From Patescibacteria group bacterium (GTDB taxonomy: Bacteria > Patescibacteriota > UBA1384 > XYA2-FULL-43-10), in contig JBAYVT010000002.1 of the NCBI GenBank assembly GCA_041674405.1, positions 60,001-92,000 of the forward strand: 32,000 bases of DNA, written 5' to 3'. A model generated the notes under the pieces. That model was not told the origin of the DNA and did no database searches. It saw nothing but the letters and a program-made list of their open reading frames with translations. Shown one piece after another: positions 1,035 to 31,705 of this stretch. Position numbers and translations under genes: made by a program. The first letter of the stretch is position 1, and every line of letters starts with the position of its first letter.

Positions 1035-1063
1035 TTGACATAATTTAAAAATATTGTTAAAGT
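1035..1063 (+). promoter_or_regulatory. Sigma70-type promoter driving the structured RNA and tRNA-Ile
   Basis: TTGACA at 1035-1040, a 17-nt spacer ending in TGt, then TAAAGT at 1058-1063. It is divergent from the rpsB promoter, about 20 bp away. Confidence 0.55.
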
Positions 1064-1069
1064 CGTTTT

Positions 1070-1250
1070 TGTCGGTTTCGCGGGAGATCGAAACCTGACG
1101 GGGCGAGGGTTCAAGGAGTCCGCTCCAGTCTCCCGCCTAATGGTGGCGAAGCGAAAGCTTATTGCCGAGAGGCAATCGCAAGTAACCAATCTTGCCGCCA
1201 TCCCAAACATTAAACCGCCCATGGGCGGTTAAGCTTGCCTCTTTGGAGGC
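1070..1250 (+). ncRNA. Unassigned GC-rich structured RNA candidate, probably co-transcribed with tRNA-Ile
   Basis: The line starting at 1081 has 38 G+C per 60 nt, in an AT-rich genome. Several strong helices are visible. GGTTTCG/CGAAACC encloses CGGGAGA, which can alternatively pair with a downstream TCTCCCG (pseudoknot-like). An 11-bp helix joins ATGGTGGCGAAG to CTTGCCGCCAT. There is a hairpin ATTGCC-GAGA-GGCAAT with a GNRA loop, the palindrome AACCGCCC-AT-GGGCGGTT, and TGCCTC-TTTG-GAGGCA. It lies between a good promoter and the tRNA. The only ORF here (992..1222, minus strand) looks spurious. Confidence 0.4.
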
Positions 1251-1251
1251 A

Positions 1252-1328
1252 GGGTACGTAGCTCAGTTGGATAGAGCGTCTCCCTGATAAGGAGAAGGCC
1301 GGGGGTTCAATCCCCTCCGTACCCACCA
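1252..1328 (+). tRNA. tRNA-Ile (anticodon GAU) with genomically encoded CCA
   Basis: Manual cloverleaf. Acceptor GGGTACG/CGTACCC. D-arm GCTC-AGTTGGATA-GAGC. Anticodon stem TCTCC/GGAGA with loop CTGATAA (anticodon GAT). Variable loop AGGCC. T-arm GGGGG-TTCAATC-CCCTC. Discriminator A, then CCA at 1326-1328. Confidence 0.93.
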
Positions 1329-1333
1329 CCCTT

Positions 1334-1372
1334 CCCTCTCTGCGCCTCGCGCAGAGAGGGTTTCCCGTTTTT
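1334..1372 (+). terminator. Rho-independent terminator after tRNA-Ile
   Basis: An 11-bp GC-rich stem CCCTCTCTGCG/CGCAGAGAGGG (1334-1360) with a 5-nt loop, followed by TTTCCCGTTTTT. Confidence 0.7.
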
Positions 1373-1414
1373 AGGCTTGATTTTAAGTCAATATTCTGTT
1401 AATATAATTTCGTT

Positions 1415-1708
1415 ATGAAAAAAGTCATTCATCCAACTTATTATCCTGAGGCTAAGGTCACATGTGCATGTGGTGCAACTTTTACTATGGGATCAACCGA
1501 AAAAGAGATTCATGTAGAAATCTGCTCCGCCTGTCACCCATACTTTACCGGCAAAGAAAAACTGGTTGATACCGCTGGCCGCGTCGATAAATTTAAAGAG
1601 CGAATGGAAGCAGCCAAGAAGTTCAAAGAAACTAAAGAACTGAAGAACAAAAGAACCGAAGAACCAAAAGAGAATACTTCCAAAAACGAAAAATCTGAAG
1701 ATAAATAG
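1415..1708 (+). CDS. rpmE: 50S ribosomal protein L31 (Zn-ribbon type) with Lys/Glu-rich C-terminal extension
   Basis: [10 protein letters not shown]...VTCACG...[28 protein letters not shown] is the canonical L31 pattern, with CxC and CxxC zinc ligands. About 28 extra K/E-rich residues follow at the C-terminus. Confidence 0.93.
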
Positions 1709-11031: not shown

Positions 11032-12411
11032 TTAAATCCTCTGGCAATCAAAAACAACAGGATATTTATTATCAAAACAAGCTGAACAAAATCCTGTATT
11101 ACCAGAAGCTCGATGTAGCCCATCTAGGCTCAAATAATGCACTCCCTCTACTCCGAGGTATTTTTCCAGTGCCGGCAAATCAAGTTTGGAGGCAATTAAT
11201 TCCTCTTCTTTTGCCATATCAATGCCATAGTAACACGGGTGTTTTACTGGTGGGCTCGCTACAATTATTCGGATTTCCTTTGCACCGGCTTCGCGTACCA
11301 TTTTTACGATTTCCTTAGATGTCGAGCCACGAACAATAGAATCATCAACCAGGCCAACTCGCTTGCCATTGATTAATTTTTTTAACACATTTAATTTCAA
11401 ACGTACTCCCGAGATCCTGACTGAACTTGAAGGATCAATAAAAAGACGTTTTGCTTGGGGTGTTTTAATGATTCCCCTGCCATATGAGACACCCGAGGCG
11501 CTGTGAAATCCAATTGCCGATGCGATTCCTGAGTCTGGAATTGGAACAATAATATCTAGCTTCTTTTTTAATATCTGATTTTCTTCAAATAAAATTTTCC
11601 CTAATTTATGGCGAAACATTTCATTCGGAGTACCGTTCAAAATACTATCCGGCCTTGATAAATATATTTTCTCAAAAACACAAAAACTAACCTTACTTCC
11701 TCCATGCAAATATTTACTGGATATTATCTTTCCACTGGAGAAAACTAGCATAGTGCCCGCCCCAACCTCCTTTATATTTTTTGCACCCATTTGATCCAGA
11801 GCACAAGTTTCAGAAGCAAGCATAAAAATAGTTTCTTCGTTAGTTTTTGCCCTCCCATAAAAAAGAGGCCTGATTCCTTTCGGATCACGTACAGCGATTA
11901 ATTTTTTAGCGGTTAAAACAAGAAGAGAAAAGGATCCACAAATTCGATTACAAGTTTCAGCGACTGCTTGTTCAATAGTTTTTTCATTTGAATGCGCAAT
12001 CAACGATGCAATTAATTCTGTGTCGCTATCTCCTGATAACTTAATTCGGCGGCTTATCATTTCTTGGCGTAATTTAGAACTATCAATATTGCCGTTATGA
12101 ACAACTGAAACATGATATTTTCCTCTTTTTTCAACTGGCTGGGCATTTTCTATAACTGATCCTCCGGTTGTCGAATAACGATTTTGCCCGACTGCAATAT
12201 TGCCGGTAAGCGGAGTAATAGTTTCTTGGCGAAAAATTTCGCTTACCAGTCCTTGTTTTTTGTATGTCTTGATTCTTTTGCCGTTTGATACCGAAATTCC
12301 AGCAGATTCTTGTCCCCGGCCCTGAATACTCTGAAGACCAATAACAAGAAGGCTTGCCAACATGAATGAATCCTTATTTTTTTCGGATATCGCTCCAACT
12401 ATTCCACACAT
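11032..12411 (-). CDS. purF: Amidophosphoribosyltransferase (glutamine PRPP amidotransferase), Fe-S type
   Basis: N-terminal nucleophile MCGIVG. PRPP loop VGLVDDSIVRGSTS. Cysteines in positions matching the Bacillus-type 4Fe-4S ligands (FCVFE, HPCYYGID, CSACF). Confidence 0.92.
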   Translation of the reverse strand: MCGIVGAISEKNKDSFMLASLLVIGLQSIQGRGQESAGISVSNGKRIKTYKKQGLVSEIFRQETITPLTGNIAVGQNRYSTTGGSVIENAQPVEKRGKYHVSVVHNGNIDSSKLRQEMISRRIKLSGDSDTELIASLIAHSNEKTIEQAVAETCNRICGSFSLLVLTAKKLIAVRDPKGIRPLFYGRAKTNEETIFMLASETCALDQMGAKNIKEVGAGTMLVFSSGKIISSKYLHGGSKVSFCVFEKIYLSRPDSILNGTPNEMFRHKLGKILFEENQILKKKLDIIVPIPDSGIASAIGFHSASGVSYGRGIIKTPQAKRLFIDPSSSVRISGVRLKLNVLKKLINGKRVGLVDDSIVRGSTSKEIVKMVREAGAKEIRIIVASPPVKHPCYYGIDMAKEEELIASKLDLPALEKYLGVEGVHYLSLDGLHRASGNTGFCSACFDNKYPVVFDCQRI

Positions 12412-12593
12412 GGTAATCCTTTTGTAATTAAAACTAAATCATCCCAATTTCATCTTATATCTTTTACCCTGAAATACAAAAAATGCATTAAAATTTTGTG
12501 CACATTTTTTGTTCTCCTAGATGATTTGATATTTAAATCGGGAAAATTTGATTAAGGGAAGATATATATCCTAACCAAAATAAATCAGAGCGA

Positions 12594-12620
12594 TTGACAA
12601 AACTACCCTTATGTTATAAT
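12594..12620 (+). promoter_or_regulatory. Near-consensus sigma70 promoter of the cassette (extended -10)
   Basis: TTGACA at 12594-12599, a 15-nt spacer, TG at 12612-12613, and TATAAT at 12615-12620. Both hexamers are perfect, but the spacer is shorter than the 17-nt optimum. Confidence 0.6.
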
Positions 12621-12665
12621 ATTCCAAGTTGGACTCATACACCGACATACAGGCTACAGGAGGAG

Positions 12666-13259
12666 ATGTTCGTGATCGACAAAGTTAGAGAGTTCAAACC
12701 ATGGGAGAAGCCGAGGGCTGACGGGAAGCACAGCATCAGCTTCTTGATCGGGTTTCGTGCCGTACTTGCGATCCCGATCCAGCACTATGACGCCGTTCTC
12801 GGCGGTCTCTACTGCGTCGCCGTCCTCCTGCTTAGAGAGGATGGGGACCATGAGATCAGAGACCGGTCGAGCGGGCTCTTGGAAATCTTGGCAGGCCGAG
12901 AACAGGATAACCTGCCACTTTCCGATCCGGCCAAGCTCGAGATGTTGGTCGGGGTCCTGTCTTCGATCTCATCCAACTCGACCGCCTACCGGCTGTACAG
13001 GAACACGGCAACCCGCAGGGTCGTGATCGTCCGCGAGGAAGGCGAAATCGGCGAAGGGGCTACAGAGAAACCTGAGAAAAGACCAGCAGGCATCGCTGCC
13101 TGGTCCGTCGAAAGGTTCAATGAATGTCTCGCTCGTGGCCACCACCGGTTCGAGGGACGCATTCTGGTGAACAACCGAGGGGGCCAGCCTTACGAGCTGA
13201 TGGTGTGCACTGACTGCAGAGTCACGATCGCAGCGATGCAAGTGATCCCGGGCAAATAG
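12666..13259 (+). CDS. Hypothetical protein A of the GC-rich cassette (about 197 aa, no recognisable family; C-terminal Cys/His cluster)
   Basis: An uninterrupted ORF whose third codon positions are mostly G/C when read codon by codon. AGGAGG at 12658-12663. Start at ATG 12666 (2-nt spacing) or GTG 12672 (8-nt spacing, arguably better). The TTG at 12594 in the track is the promoter -35 itself and is rejected. The C-terminus reads ECLARGHHRFEG...VCTDCRV. Confidence 0.7.
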   Translation: MFVIDKVREFKPWEKPRADGKHSISFLIGFRAVLAIPIQHYDAVLGGLYCVAVLLLREDGDHEIRDRSSGLLEILAGREQDNLPLSDPAKLEMLVGVLSSISSNSTAYRLYRNTATRRVVIVREEGEIGEGATEKPEKRPAGIAAWSVERFNECLARGHHRFEGRILVNNRGGQPYELMVCTDCRVTIAAMQVIPGK

Positions 13260-13283
13260 CCCAAGAAGGAGGATAGAGCCGAG

Positions 13284-13318
13284 CGGCCCCGATTCAATTC
13301 GGGGTCGTTCTGCGTTTT
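13284..13318 (+). terminator. Candidate hairpin terminator after protein A
   Basis: A 9-bp stem CGGCCCCGA/TCGGGGTCG (one G-U pair) with loop TTCAAT at 13284-13307, followed by TTCTGCGTTTT. The T tract is not immediately adjacent. Confidence 0.45.
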
Positions 13319-13334
13319 ATCCACAGCAATATTT

Positions 13335-13370
13335 TTGACAGCGGTATATATCAAGTGGTAAGTCTAAAAT
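13335..13370 (+). promoter_or_regulatory. Possible internal promoter for protein B (weak call)
   Basis: A perfect TTGACA at 13335-13340, but no good -10 at 16-18 nt: GTAAGT/TAAGTC at 13358-13364. The best -10-like hexamer, TAAAAT at 13365-13370, is 24 nt away. Confidence 0.3.
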
Positions 13371-13403
13371 AGATCGTATTACTTCCGCATCGGGGTGATT
13401 TTG

Positions 13404-13796
13404 ATGGGAAGTTCGTCAGGTCGGCGTCGACGCCCGTCTTCGGTATGGAAGCAAGCATACCGCGCGAATGGTAAAGCTCACAAGCTCACCAAGTCGGGCG
13501 AAGACGAGAAGGCTGCCGAGGCGTTTTACCAGAAGGTAGGCTGTGTCTGCGAGACATCGCTTACCCCAGGCTTTACGCAATGGCAATGGGATCCTGTCGT
13601 AGAAGCCGTCTCGGTATCTCTAGCACACCCGCCGAAGAAAGAACGGCACAAGCGACTCCATGTTCCTCCAGACGTACTGGAGGAATACATCAGAGGGAAC
13701 GGCTTTTCAAGCCGCGAAAGGAACTTCCTTCTGAAGCGCCTTCGGCAAGTACTTCGGTACCGAGAGAAAGGCGCTCCCCAACCTTACGTTCGGTAG
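13404..13796 (+). CDS. Hypothetical protein B of the GC-rich cassette (about 130 aa, very basic, Arg-rich N-terminus)
   Basis: An ORF with G/C-rich third positions. GGGGTGA lies 6-8 nt before ATG 13404; GTG 13395 and TTG 13401 are alternatives. The N-terminus is MGSSSGRRRRPSS. The C-terminus is R/K-rich and helical-looking (RERNFLLKRLRQVLRYREKG). I recognise no family. Confidence 0.65.
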   Translation: MGSSSGRRRRPSSVWKQAYRANGKAHKLTKSGEDEKAAEAFYQKVGCVCETSLTPGFTQWQWDPVVEAVSVSLAHPPKKERHKRLHVPPDVLEEYIRGNGFSSRERNFLLKRLRQVLRYREKGAPQPYVR

Positions 13797-13828
13797 GCAA
13801 CCCTACTCTATCAACCCCGCAGTAACCT

Positions 13829-13867
13829 CGCGCGGGCCATCCGTGGCTCGCGCGTTCCCCGTTTTTT
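13829..13867 (+). terminator. Rho-independent terminator closing the cassette
   Basis: An 11-bp stem CGCGCGGGCCA/TGGCTCGCGCG (one G-U pair) with loop TCCG at 13829-13854, then TTCCCCGTTTTTT. It ends 11 nt before the ligA stop codon on the other strand. Confidence 0.7.
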
Positions 13868-13878
13868 AGTACAAAATT

Positions 13879-16595
<2,717 letters not shown>

Positions 16596-31211: not shown

Positions 31212-31607
31212 CTACTTCTTCCTTCTTCTTGGGACCAATCTGCCTACAGAGCCGACGGCGTTGATAATGCCTTTGATTCTGTTTCCTTCTCGATCTTCTT
31301 TTTCCCTGCGGATTCGGCCATATCGGCGAAGACGGCGCTCAAACGATTTAAAGGCAAACCCGAATGCGCGCATCAAGCGGTCGTCGATTTCTTTGATAAA
31401 AATTTCTTCTTTTGGGAGTGCTGCTTTGATAGATACAGATTGGTCAATCCCGCCTTTCTCCGGACCAGATTCGTCCGTAAGTGTCACGATCACATCTACC
31501 GGGCTGAATGCTTTGACATACTTTTTCAGCTGCAACACTTTTTTCTCAATGAGCGCTTTCTGCTTAGACGTTACAATCACCCCTTTGGTATGTACCGTTA
31601 CGTTCAT
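31212..31607 (-). CDS. hpf: Ribosome hibernation-promoting factor / RaiA family protein (short form with basic tail)
   Basis: The N-terminus MNVTVHTKGVIVTSKQKALIEKKVLQLKKY fits the HPF/YfiA pattern (short strand, then T..l..yv..Kl.kl). GGGAGAA SD before ATG 31607. Confidence 0.7.
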   Translation of the reverse strand: MNVTVHTKGVIVTSKQKALIEKKVLQLKKYVKAFSPVDVIVTLTDESGPEKGGIDQSVSIKAALPKEEIFIKEIDDRLMRAFGFAFKSFERRLRRYGRIRREKEDREGNRIKGIINAVGSVGRLVPRRRKK

Positions 31608-31705
31608 GGATTCTCCCAAAAATTAGTTTTTAATTTTTAACTAATTCTATTATCTTATAGTAAACTTAATTAATACTGAATTAACAATAGAGTAATCGCC
31701 GAAAT

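Follow-up and report, generated by a model that had tools for sequence, protein, structure and literature searches.

The window analyzed here is a 32-kb stretch of the genome of a Berkelbacteria-like Patescibacterium (CPR), an organism with a reduced, AT-rich genome. At 12.6–13.87 kb of the window, GC reaches 0.55–0.60 compared to approximately 0.40 in the flanks, and this block contains two small genes, which we call A and B, with their own signals (Table 1). Both genes point away from gatC (here purF), in a head-to-head arrangement, and converge on ligA. Apart from them, the ORFs of at least 120 amino acids beyond 3.8 kb are on the minus strand or are shadow ORFs inside those. Several shadow ORFs of 50–90 amino acids are also present in other frames of the block.

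Table 1. Features in and around the GC-rich block (positions in the 32-kb window)
Feature	Position	Strand	Description
purF	11032–12411	−	Upstream neighbor in the window lineage only; elsewhere gatC is the direct divergent neighbor of A
Promoter of A	12594–12622	+	−35 TTGACA (12594–12599), 17-nt spacer, −10 TAATAT (12617–12622); 10 of 12 consensus matches
5′UTR of A	12623–12665	+	Approximately 40 nt, GC 0.40; SD AGGAGGAG at 12658–12665
Gene A	12666–13259	+	195–197 amino acids; start ATG 12666 or GTG 12672
Intrinsic terminator of A	13281–13319	+	12-bp stem, loop, T-run
Perfect DnaA-box 9-mer	13317–13325	+	TTATCCACA; 9 nt 5′ of the B −35
Promoter of B	13335–13364	+	−35 TTGACA (13335–13340), weak −10 TAAGTC (13359–13364); from the A–B intergenic alignment
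Gene B	13404–13796	+	130 amino acids from ATG 13404 (likelier) or 133 from GTG 13395
Intrinsic terminator of B	13829–13867	+	11-bp GC-rich stem (13829–13854), T6 (13862–13867); from sequence and fold
ligA (NAD-dependent DNA ligase)	13879–15924	−	Pfam domains; convergent neighbor and positional anchor of the cassette

In 200-nt windows, GC rises from 0.275–0.415 (12200–12600) to 0.58–0.605 (12700–13300), stays at 0.49–0.565 up to 13800 and then drops to 0.40–0.44 within ligA. Elsewhere in the 32 kb, a single 300-nt segment exceeds the median GC by 0.12 or more: the tRNA region at 1031–1407. Because the ORFs are GC-rich (A, 0.58; B, 0.55) and the promoter, UTR and spacers are at 0.27–0.40 (promoter plus 5′UTR of A, 0.40; A–B spacer, 0.38; upstream spacer, 0.27), the GC step matches the ORF boundaries; high GC is limited to the ORFs and the terminator stems. 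The GC3 is 0.71 in A and 0.56–0.57 in B, against 0.29–0.41 in host genes, and Arg is used far more than Lys in the block, the opposite of host usage. Around the block we found no terminal inverted or direct repeats beyond chance AT-rich matches, and near it no mobility gene (integrase, transposase) or tRNA target.

A sequence-only reading of this locus had described a sharp jump in GC, a block antisense to all its neighbors, two real coding ORFs with G/C-biased third positions, a self-contained unit with a near-perfect promoter, SD sites and two terminators and the absence of mobility genes and repeat scars, and had considered a reduced-genome host; all of this holds, the host being a CPR bacterium. 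Its ORF list placed the start of A at a TTG at 12594, which is in fact the −35 hexamer itself.

Are the two ORFs real genes? The stop-free ORFs span 12594–13259 and 13395–13796, both on the plus strand. Length alone is not evidence of coding, because at 58% GC the longest stop-free run in shuffled sequence averages 128 codons and 2% of the shuffles reach 205, which makes a 205-codon run only mildly unusual. Their coding status rests instead on comparative evidence, namely homology and pN << pS. The ease with which long ORFs arise at this GC, together with the shadow ORFs in other frames, could be read as the mark of an artefact, i.e., of an assembly chimera or of chance ORFs in a GC-rich spacer. 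We consider the probability of this negligible: over the full 1.6-kb island and both junctions, the contigs of four independent samples agree at 100% identity, which excludes the chimera that the sequence-only reading had been concerned about, and the conserved protein family with pN << pS, the confident structure prediction and the conserved regulatory signals all speak against chance. For A, the artefact is already refuted.

Genes A and B and their signals

The near-consensus promoter of A has an alternative −10, TATAAT, at 12615–12620. A TTGAC(A/T) hexamer with a TATAAT-like −10 is found at the same position 5′ of A in seven relatives (L005, L006, L055, L012, L009, L014, L010), and the start context AGGAG-ATG is kept in L005, L006 and L055. 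The terminator of A is kept in five lineages, with compensatory double changes at 4 of its 12 stem pairs. The A unit extends from this near-consensus sigma-70 promoter to the covarying terminator.

The N-terminal α/β domain of A (residues 1–125) has a conserved core consisting of an LPLSDP-helix and a YRLY/IVREE hairpin. It is followed by a disordered, acidic, Pro-containing linker (residues 126–150) and by a zinc-ribbon-like C-terminal domain with the ligands C152, H158, C179 and C182 (C-H-C-C). C179 and C182 never vary and H158 hardly does, and most of the 12–16 sequences have C152. In an AlphaFold2 model based on a 12-sequence alignment, the pLDDT is 82 overall and above 90 in the N-domain, compared to 40 with a 3-sequence alignment. 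The zinc-ribbon strands (160–166, 174–179, 185–188; pLDDT approximately 80–85) are modeled as a three-stranded antiparallel sheet bearing both knuckles. In this the last approximately 40 residues resemble the zinc ribbons of TFIIS, Rpb9 and LEF-5, which likewise have a three-stranded sheet and two metal-binding knuckles; the first knuckle of A, however, is C-x5-H and not CxxC, and its N-terminal domain has no counterpart in those proteins.

The homologs of A comprise two that are 56% and 47% identical and about 12 more distant ones. The pN of A (0.26–0.34, compared to a pS of approximately 0.7) is 2.5–7 times that of ligA, and a variable N-terminal sheet and linker stand beside a conserved scaffold. 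A is a fast-evolving cytoplasmic protein of approximately 195 amino acids, with a C-terminal zinc ribbon predicted by the model.

B is a basic protein (R+K approximately 20%) that has a basic tail and the conserved motif H-x-P...YIRGNG(F/Y)...R..LL. Its GC1/2/3 of 0.63/0.46/0.57 is coding-like. Homologs are present in L006, L055, L056, L011 and L064 (the B profile matches the L064 ORF with an E-value of 5e-5), and there is a fragment in L012. B is under weak constraint (pN 0.51, pS 0.74). The gene finders left it uncalled in the window genome, where both its −10 and its SD are weak; it may be decaying there. The consensus promoter scan missed the B promoter of the window because of the poor −10; the relatives have TATGAT or TAGATT at this position, and a GTATATA motif in the spacer is conserved. 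The terminator of B ends 11 nt before the ligA stop codon. Every B homolog has its own strong hairpin and T-run at its 3′ side, and these are too diverged to be aligned across lineages for covariation.

The 9-mer TTATCCACA is the sole perfect DnaA-box match in the 32-kb window. Exactly one perfect DnaA box is present at the homologous spot, 8–9 nt from the −35, in L006, L055 and L056–58, and four of the five stand-alone B promoters have a perfect box with this spacing. The box is degenerate in L011, gone along with B in L005 and missing from the operonic arrangements of the two genes (L064, L012). From the sequence, we infer that DnaA would bind at 13317–13325. B is an accessory gene with its own promoter and a positionally conserved perfect DnaA box directly 5′ of the −35.

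Neither protein was recognizable in the sequence-only reading, and sensitive profile and structure searches leave both as orphans. For A and B, as single sequences or family-wide, Pfam, PHROGs, PADLOC and NCBIfam give no match; in PADLOC-DB nothing falls below an E-value of 0.019, with Cas8b and REase_II as noise matches in one or two members. Profile searches against solved structures (PDB) return noise only. Foldseek with the A model has best E-values of 0.07 (PDB) and 0.046 (BFVD) at a TM of approximately 0.15; its N-domain has no neighbor in either collection, and the weak best matches of the zinc-ribbon part, Rpb9 and LEF-5, are statistically insignificant (E-value at least 0.16). The large proteins P0007, P0010 and P0013 matched in the profile search were rejected as artefacts of Ig-like and JmjC repeats. 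Rfam has no family in the island, either at the gathering threshold or at E-values up to 10. About 12 relatives of A are found among 1.84 billion representative proteins, and outside the Berkelbacteria lineage no relative is found in that set, the GTDB species representatives, IMG/VR or the phage and plasmid collections. Peptide-pattern scans for A (GTDB representatives, IMG/VR, JGI metagenomes) and tblastn against the phage and plasmid collections were likewise negative, and literature searches found nothing relevant.

Distribution and descent in Berkelbacteria

To recover distant A-like genes, we fetched ligA loci and applied tblastn and ORF listing. At least 14 diverged lineages carry a homolog of A that is flanked by gatC and by the 3′ end of ligA, with which it is convergent. 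This placement and orientation are shared by the window, L005, L006, L055, L056, L007, L009/L061, L012, L014, L016, L010, L008, L063 and L064. L013 and L052, 2 of the 13 species representatives, have an empty spacer. B is beside A in six lineages and alone in one (L011), and at least eight lineages have A without B (L005, L007, L009, L014, L016, L010, L063, L061). A conserved terminator and a separate B promoter divide the two genes in the window, L006, L055 and L056. In L064 they are operonic with a 15-nt junction, and probably also in L012, whose A–B junction has an assembly gap.

The Berkelbacteria that carry the cassette are far apart: their LigA proteins are only 65–80% identical, and the ligA pS of 0.57–0.77 corresponds to a dS of at least 1.1, i.e., synonymous sites are saturated. 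Any import of the cassette therefore predates the divergence of these lineages and should have ameliorated. The sequence-only reading had taken the block as foreign, from a GC-richer donor, and as toxin-antitoxin or defense cargo, and the order gatC/A/B/ligA across saturated Berkelbacteria, with no relative outside them, contradicts this origin. An import would explain the atypical GC, GC3 and amino acid usage (Arg far above Lys) and the compact, self-contained pair of small genes. It would leave unexplained why, within the block, promoters and spacers are conserved, with an AT-richness like that of the host, and no donor or outside homolog was found. Judged from gene order and sequence divergence, the recent-import explanation is largely refuted by synteny. 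The sequence-only reading had itself proposed two comparisons. Against a foreign block it had set synteny in relatives together with homologs of known function; the block is syntenic in most relatives, and no homolog of known function was found. It had also proposed to look for an empty site in sibling genomes; only L013 and L052 have one among the 13 species representatives, and A occupies the spacer in 14 or more lineages.

In the type II toxin-antitoxin system MqsR/MqsA, the antitoxin has a zinc-binding domain. A and B share several features with such systems: they are adjacent small genes, compact and self-contained, A has a Cys/His zinc module, B is basic and the two are operonic in one sub-clade (L064, with 15 nt between them). 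They differ in that a terminator and a second promoter lie between them in the window and four other lineages, in that they are inherited at a fixed site and not mobile and in that neither is homologous to a known family of toxins or antitoxins; the toxin, antitoxin and defense profiles of PADLOC, Pfam and NCBIfam are all without a match. Moreover, the two do not strictly co-occur: some lineages live with A only and one with B only, as an obligatory toxin/antidote pair would not allow. A recently acquired foreign module of this kind is highly improbable.

How stable is the resident gene? The distances of A correlate with those of LigA (Mantel r 0.38, p 0.02), in keeping with vertical descent; the congruence is modest and partial, and rates are very uneven (in L009 and L014, LigA is 91% identical and A 36%). 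Given both, there may have been allelic replacement of A among Berkelbacteria. L008 and L010 have copies that carry frameshifts yet are still well conserved, and unrelated GC-rich ORFs also occupy the spacer in L014, L015 and L056. These extra ORFs fit a local hotspot or a biased process as well as selection on each gene. The idea that those of L014 are paralogs of the A N-domain is unsupported by an HMM search.

The spacer might thus be a hotspot of arms-race cargo, in which A, B and the other GC-rich ORFs are dispensable, diversifying factors of defense, counter-defense or host interaction, exchanged among Berkelbacteria by homologous recombination via the conserved ligA and gatC flanks. Very fast nonsynonymous change (pN of A 2.5–7 times that of ligA), the contrast within A between a conserved scaffold and its variable N-terminal sheet and linker, the modest A/LigA congruence, the coming and going of B, the extra ORFs, the empty spacers and the frameshifts all fit this explanation, as does the near-confinement of GC-high DNA to the spacer in the 175 kb sampled. 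Yet most lineages have A, together with regulatory DNA that is conserved, which makes it resemble a core gene of the lineage more than shuffled cargo; no family member matches PADLOC or PHROG, neither protein has an enzymatic domain and relatives are missing from the phage, plasmid and IMG/VR data, as are mobility genes and repeats from the locus. Saturated synonymous sites preclude a test of positive selection. The comparison with defense islands and integration hotspots is similarly divided. The locus shares with them variable content of atypical composition between two housekeeping genes, with fast-evolving genes that are dispensable in some lineages; it lacks an integrase, a tRNA/att site, repeats and any known defense domain, A and its regulatory DNA are conserved lineage-wide, and the composition is maintained, not ameliorating. 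On balance we consider arms-race cargo unlikely, at perhaps one chance in a handful.

High, probably maintained GC and mRNA folding

The GC3 of A is 0.50–0.73 in 13 of 16 lineages and that of B 0.55–0.68, against 0.29–0.46 for ligA, and in 175 kb of sampled Berkelbacteria sequence GC-high DNA is nearly confined to the gatC–ligA spacer. The codon shift cannot be reduced to translational selection of the NNY-to-NNC type, a candidate we rejected: four-fold codons and those of K, E and Q shift too, and the ribosomal protein genes S2 and L9 have host-like, unbiased codon usage.

The transcripts also fold more stably than expected. With dinucleotide shuffling, the fold z-scores average −1.75 for A, −3.0 for B and −0.3 for host genes; with permutation of synonymous codons, they average −1.86 for A (p-value 0.002), −1.96 for B (p-value 0.007) and −0.09 for host genes. 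Individual genes vary from 0 to −5.7, and the group-level excess is significant. For the whole transcription units, z is about −4.5 for both A and B; in the dinucleotide-shuffle comparison, B of the window has a z of −6.1. One copy is an exception: A of L016 is intact with host-like GC and has no folding excess, which shows that high GC is not indispensable. That the low-GC copies of A are merely decaying is only partly supported, since those of L008 and L010 are frameshifted but conserved and that of L016 is intact.

A GC-rich island in an AT-rich genome is a classic signature of RNA genes, and the transcripts could be primarily structured or dual-function RNAs whose ORFs are secondary or incidental. 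The strong promoters and terminators, the whole-unit folding, the persistence of the excess under the synonymous-permutation null across lineages and the failure of gene finders to call B in the window genome are in keeping with this. Against it stand a strong 3-periodicity, with GC2 below GC1 and GC3, conservation that is seen in the proteins, down to invariant zinc ligands, and the confident AlphaFold2 model of A; moreover, Rfam has no family here even at E-values up to 10, and the z-scores are moderate and variable, not uniformly like those of ncRNAs. Nucleotide identity between lineages is low, and covariation was assessed in terminators only. Compared to known GC-rich RNA genes (tRNA, RNase P RNA, large ornate ncRNAs), A and B have the same sharp GC contrast, strong promoter and terminator and greater stability than shuffled controls; unlike them, they are protein-coding by periodicity, conserved proteins and zinc ligands, and show a moderate folding excess without an Rfam match. 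We regard a primarily RNA-level function as improbable.

The composition looks maintained by selection, because high GC3 persists despite saturated synonymous sites, is confined to the ORFs and is accompanied by mRNAs that outfold their codon-permuted versions. The coding-sequence GC has stayed at a GC3 of approximately 0.6–0.7 through saturating synonymous divergence, which we read as selection acting on the transcript for stability or structure, and it does not look like the fading trace of a transfer. We think it probable, with real room for doubt, that the block is an old, Berkelbacteria-specific resident cassette of two independently transcribed orphan genes in the gatC–ligA spacer, whose composition is kept by selection.

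Possible roles and significance

It is tempting to hypothesize that A and B are independent small regulators, binding nucleic acids or partner proteins, that are tied to chromosome replication or maintenance. The output of B would be coupled to the occupancy of its box by DnaA, and the zinc ribbon of A would be its docking module, either for nucleic acid or for a protein of replication or transcription. The link to replication is held with low confidence; it draws on one conserved 9-mer, the adjacency of ligA and analogy. In Bacillus subtilis, Sda has DnaA boxes in its promoter, and YabA is a small protein with a C-terminal Zn-binding domain that has Cys/His ligands. Like them, A and B are small and lineage-restricted, and they adjoin a replication gene (ligA); the consensus DnaA box, which keeps a constant spacing to the B −35, recalls Sda, and the C-terminal module of three Cys and one His in A recalls YabA. 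The likeness is one of layout alone, without shown sequence or structural similarity; in contrast to Sda, B has a single box and not a cluster, and the box is absent in the operonic sub-clade. By analogy, such roles are possible, and we put them forward tentatively, as a minority prospect of a little over one in five at best.

A bolder version is that A (an unmatched fold plus a zinc ribbon) and B (a basic protein under DnaA-box control) represent a new CPR-specific class of small regulators whose transcripts are themselves selected. GC-rich, highly self-folded mRNAs would then have been kept in an AT-rich genome for as long as the lineage has existed. The reason might be extreme mRNA stability, a second function at the RNA level or the limiting of R-loops, in which last case A and B would be the only head-on genes of the region with strong transcription. 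We consider this combination doubtful. If true, selection rather than transfer would have made the block a compositional island within the genome.

Horizontal transfer is the routine reading of a local GC anomaly. A 1.2-kb, ORF-limited GC3 anomaly that is old, conserved at its site and made of codons favoring folding would be a clean counter-example to that reading, and the block would be a place to test whether transcript composition is under selection in reduced genomes. By sequence comparison, A and B are new protein families confined to one CPR class. The biology of CPR bacteria is dominated by unknown proteins, few of which have a comparable comparative anatomy, with promoters, terminators and a candidate regulator site. 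A conserved DnaA box beside ligA may provide an entry to replication and cell-cycle control in organisms that have not yet been grown alone.

The GC-rich block and its two genes

The sequence-only reading of this stretch had described an abrupt jump in G+C between purF and ligA. In 200-nt windows the content indeed goes from 0.28–0.42 upstream to 0.58–0.605 at 12700–13300, stays at 0.49–0.57 on to about 13800, and returns to 0.40–0.44 within ligA; elsewhere in the 32-kb window just one 300-nt segment exceeds the median by 0.12 or more, the tRNA region near 1.0–1.4 kb. The block is not an assembly chimera: 1.6 kb including both junctions are 100% identical across contigs of four unrelated samples, one of them 137 kb long. 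Its two genes, A and B, are, as described, the sole plus-strand coding unit past 3.8 kb (the remaining substantial ORFs are minus-strand or shadows of minus-strand ORFs), and no terminal repeats flank the block. The near-consensus promoter (TTGACA-17-TAATAT) and the first terminator were recovered by scan, the second terminator by sequence and fold. The long ORF of A begins with a TTG that belongs to the -35 hexamer and hence is no start codon; the SD position and homology place the start at ATG 12666 or, alternatively, GTG 12672. For B, ATG 13404 is the likelier start.

Coordinates of features in the window
Feature	Position	Strand	Remark
tRNA-Ile transcription unit	1037-1370	+	TTGACA at ~1037
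GC-rich leader	1066-1251	+	~185 nt
tRNA-Ile(GAT)	1252-1328	+	directly 3' of leader; strong terminator next
rpmE (L31)	~1410-1708		downstream of tRNA-Ile(GAT) unit
purF	11032-12411	-	upstream neighbour of A and B
Promoter of A	12594-12622	+	
Long ORF of A	12594-13259	+	ORF listing
First terminator	13281-13310		
ORF of B	13395-13796	+	ORF listing
Second terminator	13829-13854		stem; T6 at 13862-13867
ligA	13879-15924	-	downstream neighbour of A and B
134-aa ORF	31212-31619	-	ribosome hibernation factor-like

In the tRNA region, a consensus promoter precedes the GC-rich leader, which folds well (z -3.6) and has no counterpart in Rfam, E values of up to 1 included. This leader may represent a small RNA, so far without annotation, that shares a transcript with tRNA-Ile(GAT).

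Could the island be an RNA gene, as GC islands in AT-rich genomes can be? We tested this idea first: the island has no Rfam match at gathering thresholds, nor any at E up to 10. Both ORFs show coding periodicity (GC1/2/3 of 0.60/0.43/0.71 for A and 0.63/0.46/0.57 for B). ORF length by itself is weak coding evidence, since 205 stop-free codons are reached in 2% of shuffles at the island's GC. Against two homologues (56% and 47% identity), A has a pN of 0.26–0.34, well below a saturated pS of about 0.7; A is thus a protein under purifying selection, in agreement with the earlier claim of real coding sequence. A 5.8-billion-protein index gave no match to B, not even B itself, because gene callers passed over it in this genome. 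ORFs at the B position in relatives have a common motif, H-x-P...YIRGNG(F/Y)...R..LL, with a basic tail, and a profile built from them matches the corresponding ORF of one further relative (L064; E 5e-5). B is only weakly constrained (pN 0.51 vs pS 0.74).

The AlphaFold2 model of A, from a 12-member alignment, is confident, with a mean pLDDT of 82 (>90 over residues 10–125). It consists of an alpha/beta domain of seven strands and two helices, whose conserved core is an LPLSDP-helix followed by a YRLY/IVREE hairpin; a disordered acidic/proline linker (126–150); and a C-terminal three-stranded module, predicted to be zinc-ribbon-like, with C152, H158, C179 and C182 invariant or almost so. Constraint is focused on the core and the C/H ligands; the N-terminal sheet varies almost freely, as does the linker. 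A is very fast-evolving: between the relatives L009 and L014 its pN is 0.435, compared with 0.06 for ligA (ligA dS ~1.1).

Descent of the cassette

The closest species-level LigA relatives (67–72% identity) are MAGs named Candidatus Berkelbacteria or auto-labelled 'Saccharibacteria'/Patescibacteria. We inspected the DNA 3' of ligA in the loci of the nearest LigA relatives (L numbers) and found in many of them a GC-rich block with an A-related antisense ORF of 186–243 aa. Such an ORF lies beside ligA in L007, L009, L010, L012, L014 and L016, and a truncated copy in L008; the spacer of L011 has a B-like ORF alone, and that of L013 and L052 is empty. Only about nine more small relatives of A came from an exhaustive profile search across 1.84 billion representatives; all those with readable contigs share the slot, in which they diverge from gatC and converge on ligA. 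A second, B-like ORF is frequent beside the database relatives of A (e.g., L055, L056–58, L061–64).

Pairwise distances of A correlate with those of LigA (Mantel r 0.38, p 0.02), and the LigA clades formed by the window's lineage, L006 and L055 and by L009, L014 and L010 are also mutual best A matches. No relatives from outside the lineage turned up in GTDB species representatives, IMG/VR and JGI metagenomes (pattern scans), INPHARED phages or PLSDB plasmids. A recent import does not survive this shared slot, the tracking of LigA by A and the lack of outside relatives: judged from these comparisons, the cassette is long-resident and lineage-specific, and its inheritance appears broadly vertical.

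The direct divergent neighbour of A is gatC in L055, L056, L063, GTDB Berkelbacteria representatives and the sister lineage L005, where A directly adjoins it. Only in the window's lineage does purF lie between; it appears to be a solitary purine-biosynthesis gene of a CPR genome, inserted in this lineage alone.

Two transcription units and a DnaA box

The upstream regions of A, aligned across lineages, all have a TTGAC(A/T)/TATAAT-type promoter, an AT-rich leader of about 40–60 nt and an SD. In the terminator hairpin 3' of the A stop the stem sequence varies by lineage and the pairing is kept, with compensatory double changes in 4 of 12 pairs. Past the hairpin the order of elements is conserved: T-run, TTATCCACA, 8–9 nt, TTGACA, GTATATA and -10, then SD and B. 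The -10 is TATGAT in L006 and L056, TAGATT in L055 and a degenerate TAAGTC in the window, where the SD too is weaker than in relatives. L011, with B and no A, has the same B promoter block, and a strong terminator of its own lies 3' of every B. In L005 B is missing and just the initial bases of the A–B block are left, which indicates a deletion. The exception is L064, operonic with 15 nt between A and B; L012, with an assembly gap within the junction, is probably like it. These separate promoters and terminators, the occurrence of A alone in at least eight lineages and of B alone in one, and the lack of family matches (as first noted for both proteins) argue against a toxin–antitoxin pair. A defence role had also been suggested earlier; the lack of a PADLOC match, of an enzymatic domain and of phage or plasmid relatives speaks against a known defence system.

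The 9-mer TTATCCACA is identical to the canonical DnaA box. The window has a single copy, and L006, L055 and L056–58 likewise have exactly one, at the corresponding site, conserved despite saturated synonymous sites between these lineages. We infer that DnaA may bind upstream of B.

Two further details concern the region 5' of A. The motif TTCTAGCACTA recurs between gatC and A, or upstream of B, in many lineages (L005 ~315–325, L006, L010, L011, L016, L063); read on the gatC strand it is TGCTAGAAT, an extended -10, and so probably the gatC promoter. At L055 1553–1600, the conserved 'AGGAG-ATG' start context of A is out of frame with the start called 31 nt downstream, which a frameshift, a wrongly called start or a short upstream ORF may explain.

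Composition, transcript structure and possible roles

Why is the cassette GC-rich? GC3 is 0.50–0.73 for A in 13 of 16 lineages and 0.55–0.68 for B, against 0.29–0.46 for the adjacent ligA. Synonymous divergence is saturated between all lineages compared, so an import older than their split should have relaxed to host composition. High GC is limited to the ORFs and terminator stems (promoters, leaders and the A–B spacer are at 0.31–0.48), which argues against a foreign DNA block or a purely regional bias. All codon classes are shifted (NNY to C 0.82, four-fold GC3 0.70, K/E/Q to G 0.55; 0.2–0.45 for the same classes in host genes, ribosomal proteins S2 and L9 included), and Arg makes up 9.7–11.3% of A and B versus 4.3% of host proteins. 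The transcripts also fold unusually well. Mean z against dinucleotide shuffles is -1.75 for A, -3.0 for B and -0.3 for host genes; with the more stringent null of synonymous codons permuted within the gene, it is -1.86 for A (n=13, p 0.002), -1.96 for B (n=6, p 0.007) and -0.09 for host genes (n=14). Cassette mRNAs have an MFE density of about -0.40 kcal/mol/nt, host genes one of about -0.25. In our reading, selection acting on the transcript keeps up both composition and structure. A recombination hotspot with biased gene conversion is a possible alternative, given the other, unrelated GC-rich ORFs in the same spacer of L014, L015 and L056.

These spacer ORFs (L014 7828–8175 and 8262–8615, both minus; L056 4585–4860, plus; L015 3077–3472, plus) have a GC of 0.54–0.59 and no detected similarity to A or B; that of L015 is membrane-protein-like and on the ligA strand. 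The ligA–gatC spacer seems to collect small GC-rich genes. Three copies of A have low GC. That of L016 is intact and lacks the folding excess; those of L008 (7050–7760) and L010 (8100–8700), on the minus strand of their loci, are frameshifted with host-like GC, their N-domain and CxxC knuckle recognisable in different frames, and could reflect pseudogenisation, programmed frameshifting or faulty assembly. In the window, the B region has an exceptionally stable fold on either strand (z -6.1 sense, -4.2 antisense); this B may be in decay or have gained a feature at the RNA level. Among the window's host genes, the putative hibernation-factor ORF has the top GC3 (0.50) and NNC preference (0.55), intermediate between host genes and cassette.

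No known kind of system fits the cassette, a conclusion reached by exclusion, with a fold search that covered PDB and BFVD. The best functional guess, tentative and rather unlikely to be correct, is that A and B would act as small regulators that bind nucleic acid or a partner and are tied to chromosome replication or maintenance. It draws on the conserved DnaA box of B, the zinc ribbon of A, the fixed place beside ligA and, as a general precedent, the small size and lineage specificity of replication regulators like Sda, YabA, SeqA and Hda. The chief rival reading, a rapidly diversifying arms-race accessory factor resident in a hotspot, is itself unlikely. All cassette neighbours lie on the strand that GC skew suggests to be leading, which would make A and B the region's only head-on genes, an orientation that would fit their fast evolution.

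The cassette thus comprises two independent transcription units for orphan proteins, ancient at this site, with GC-rich, structure-prone mRNAs that are maintained. Orphan genes are frequent among CPR bacteria; what is unusual here is an old GC island, confined to ORFs and apparently kept up by selection, that combines mRNAs biased towards structure with a conserved DnaA box. The cassette contradicts the default reading of a GC anomaly as horizontal gene transfer.
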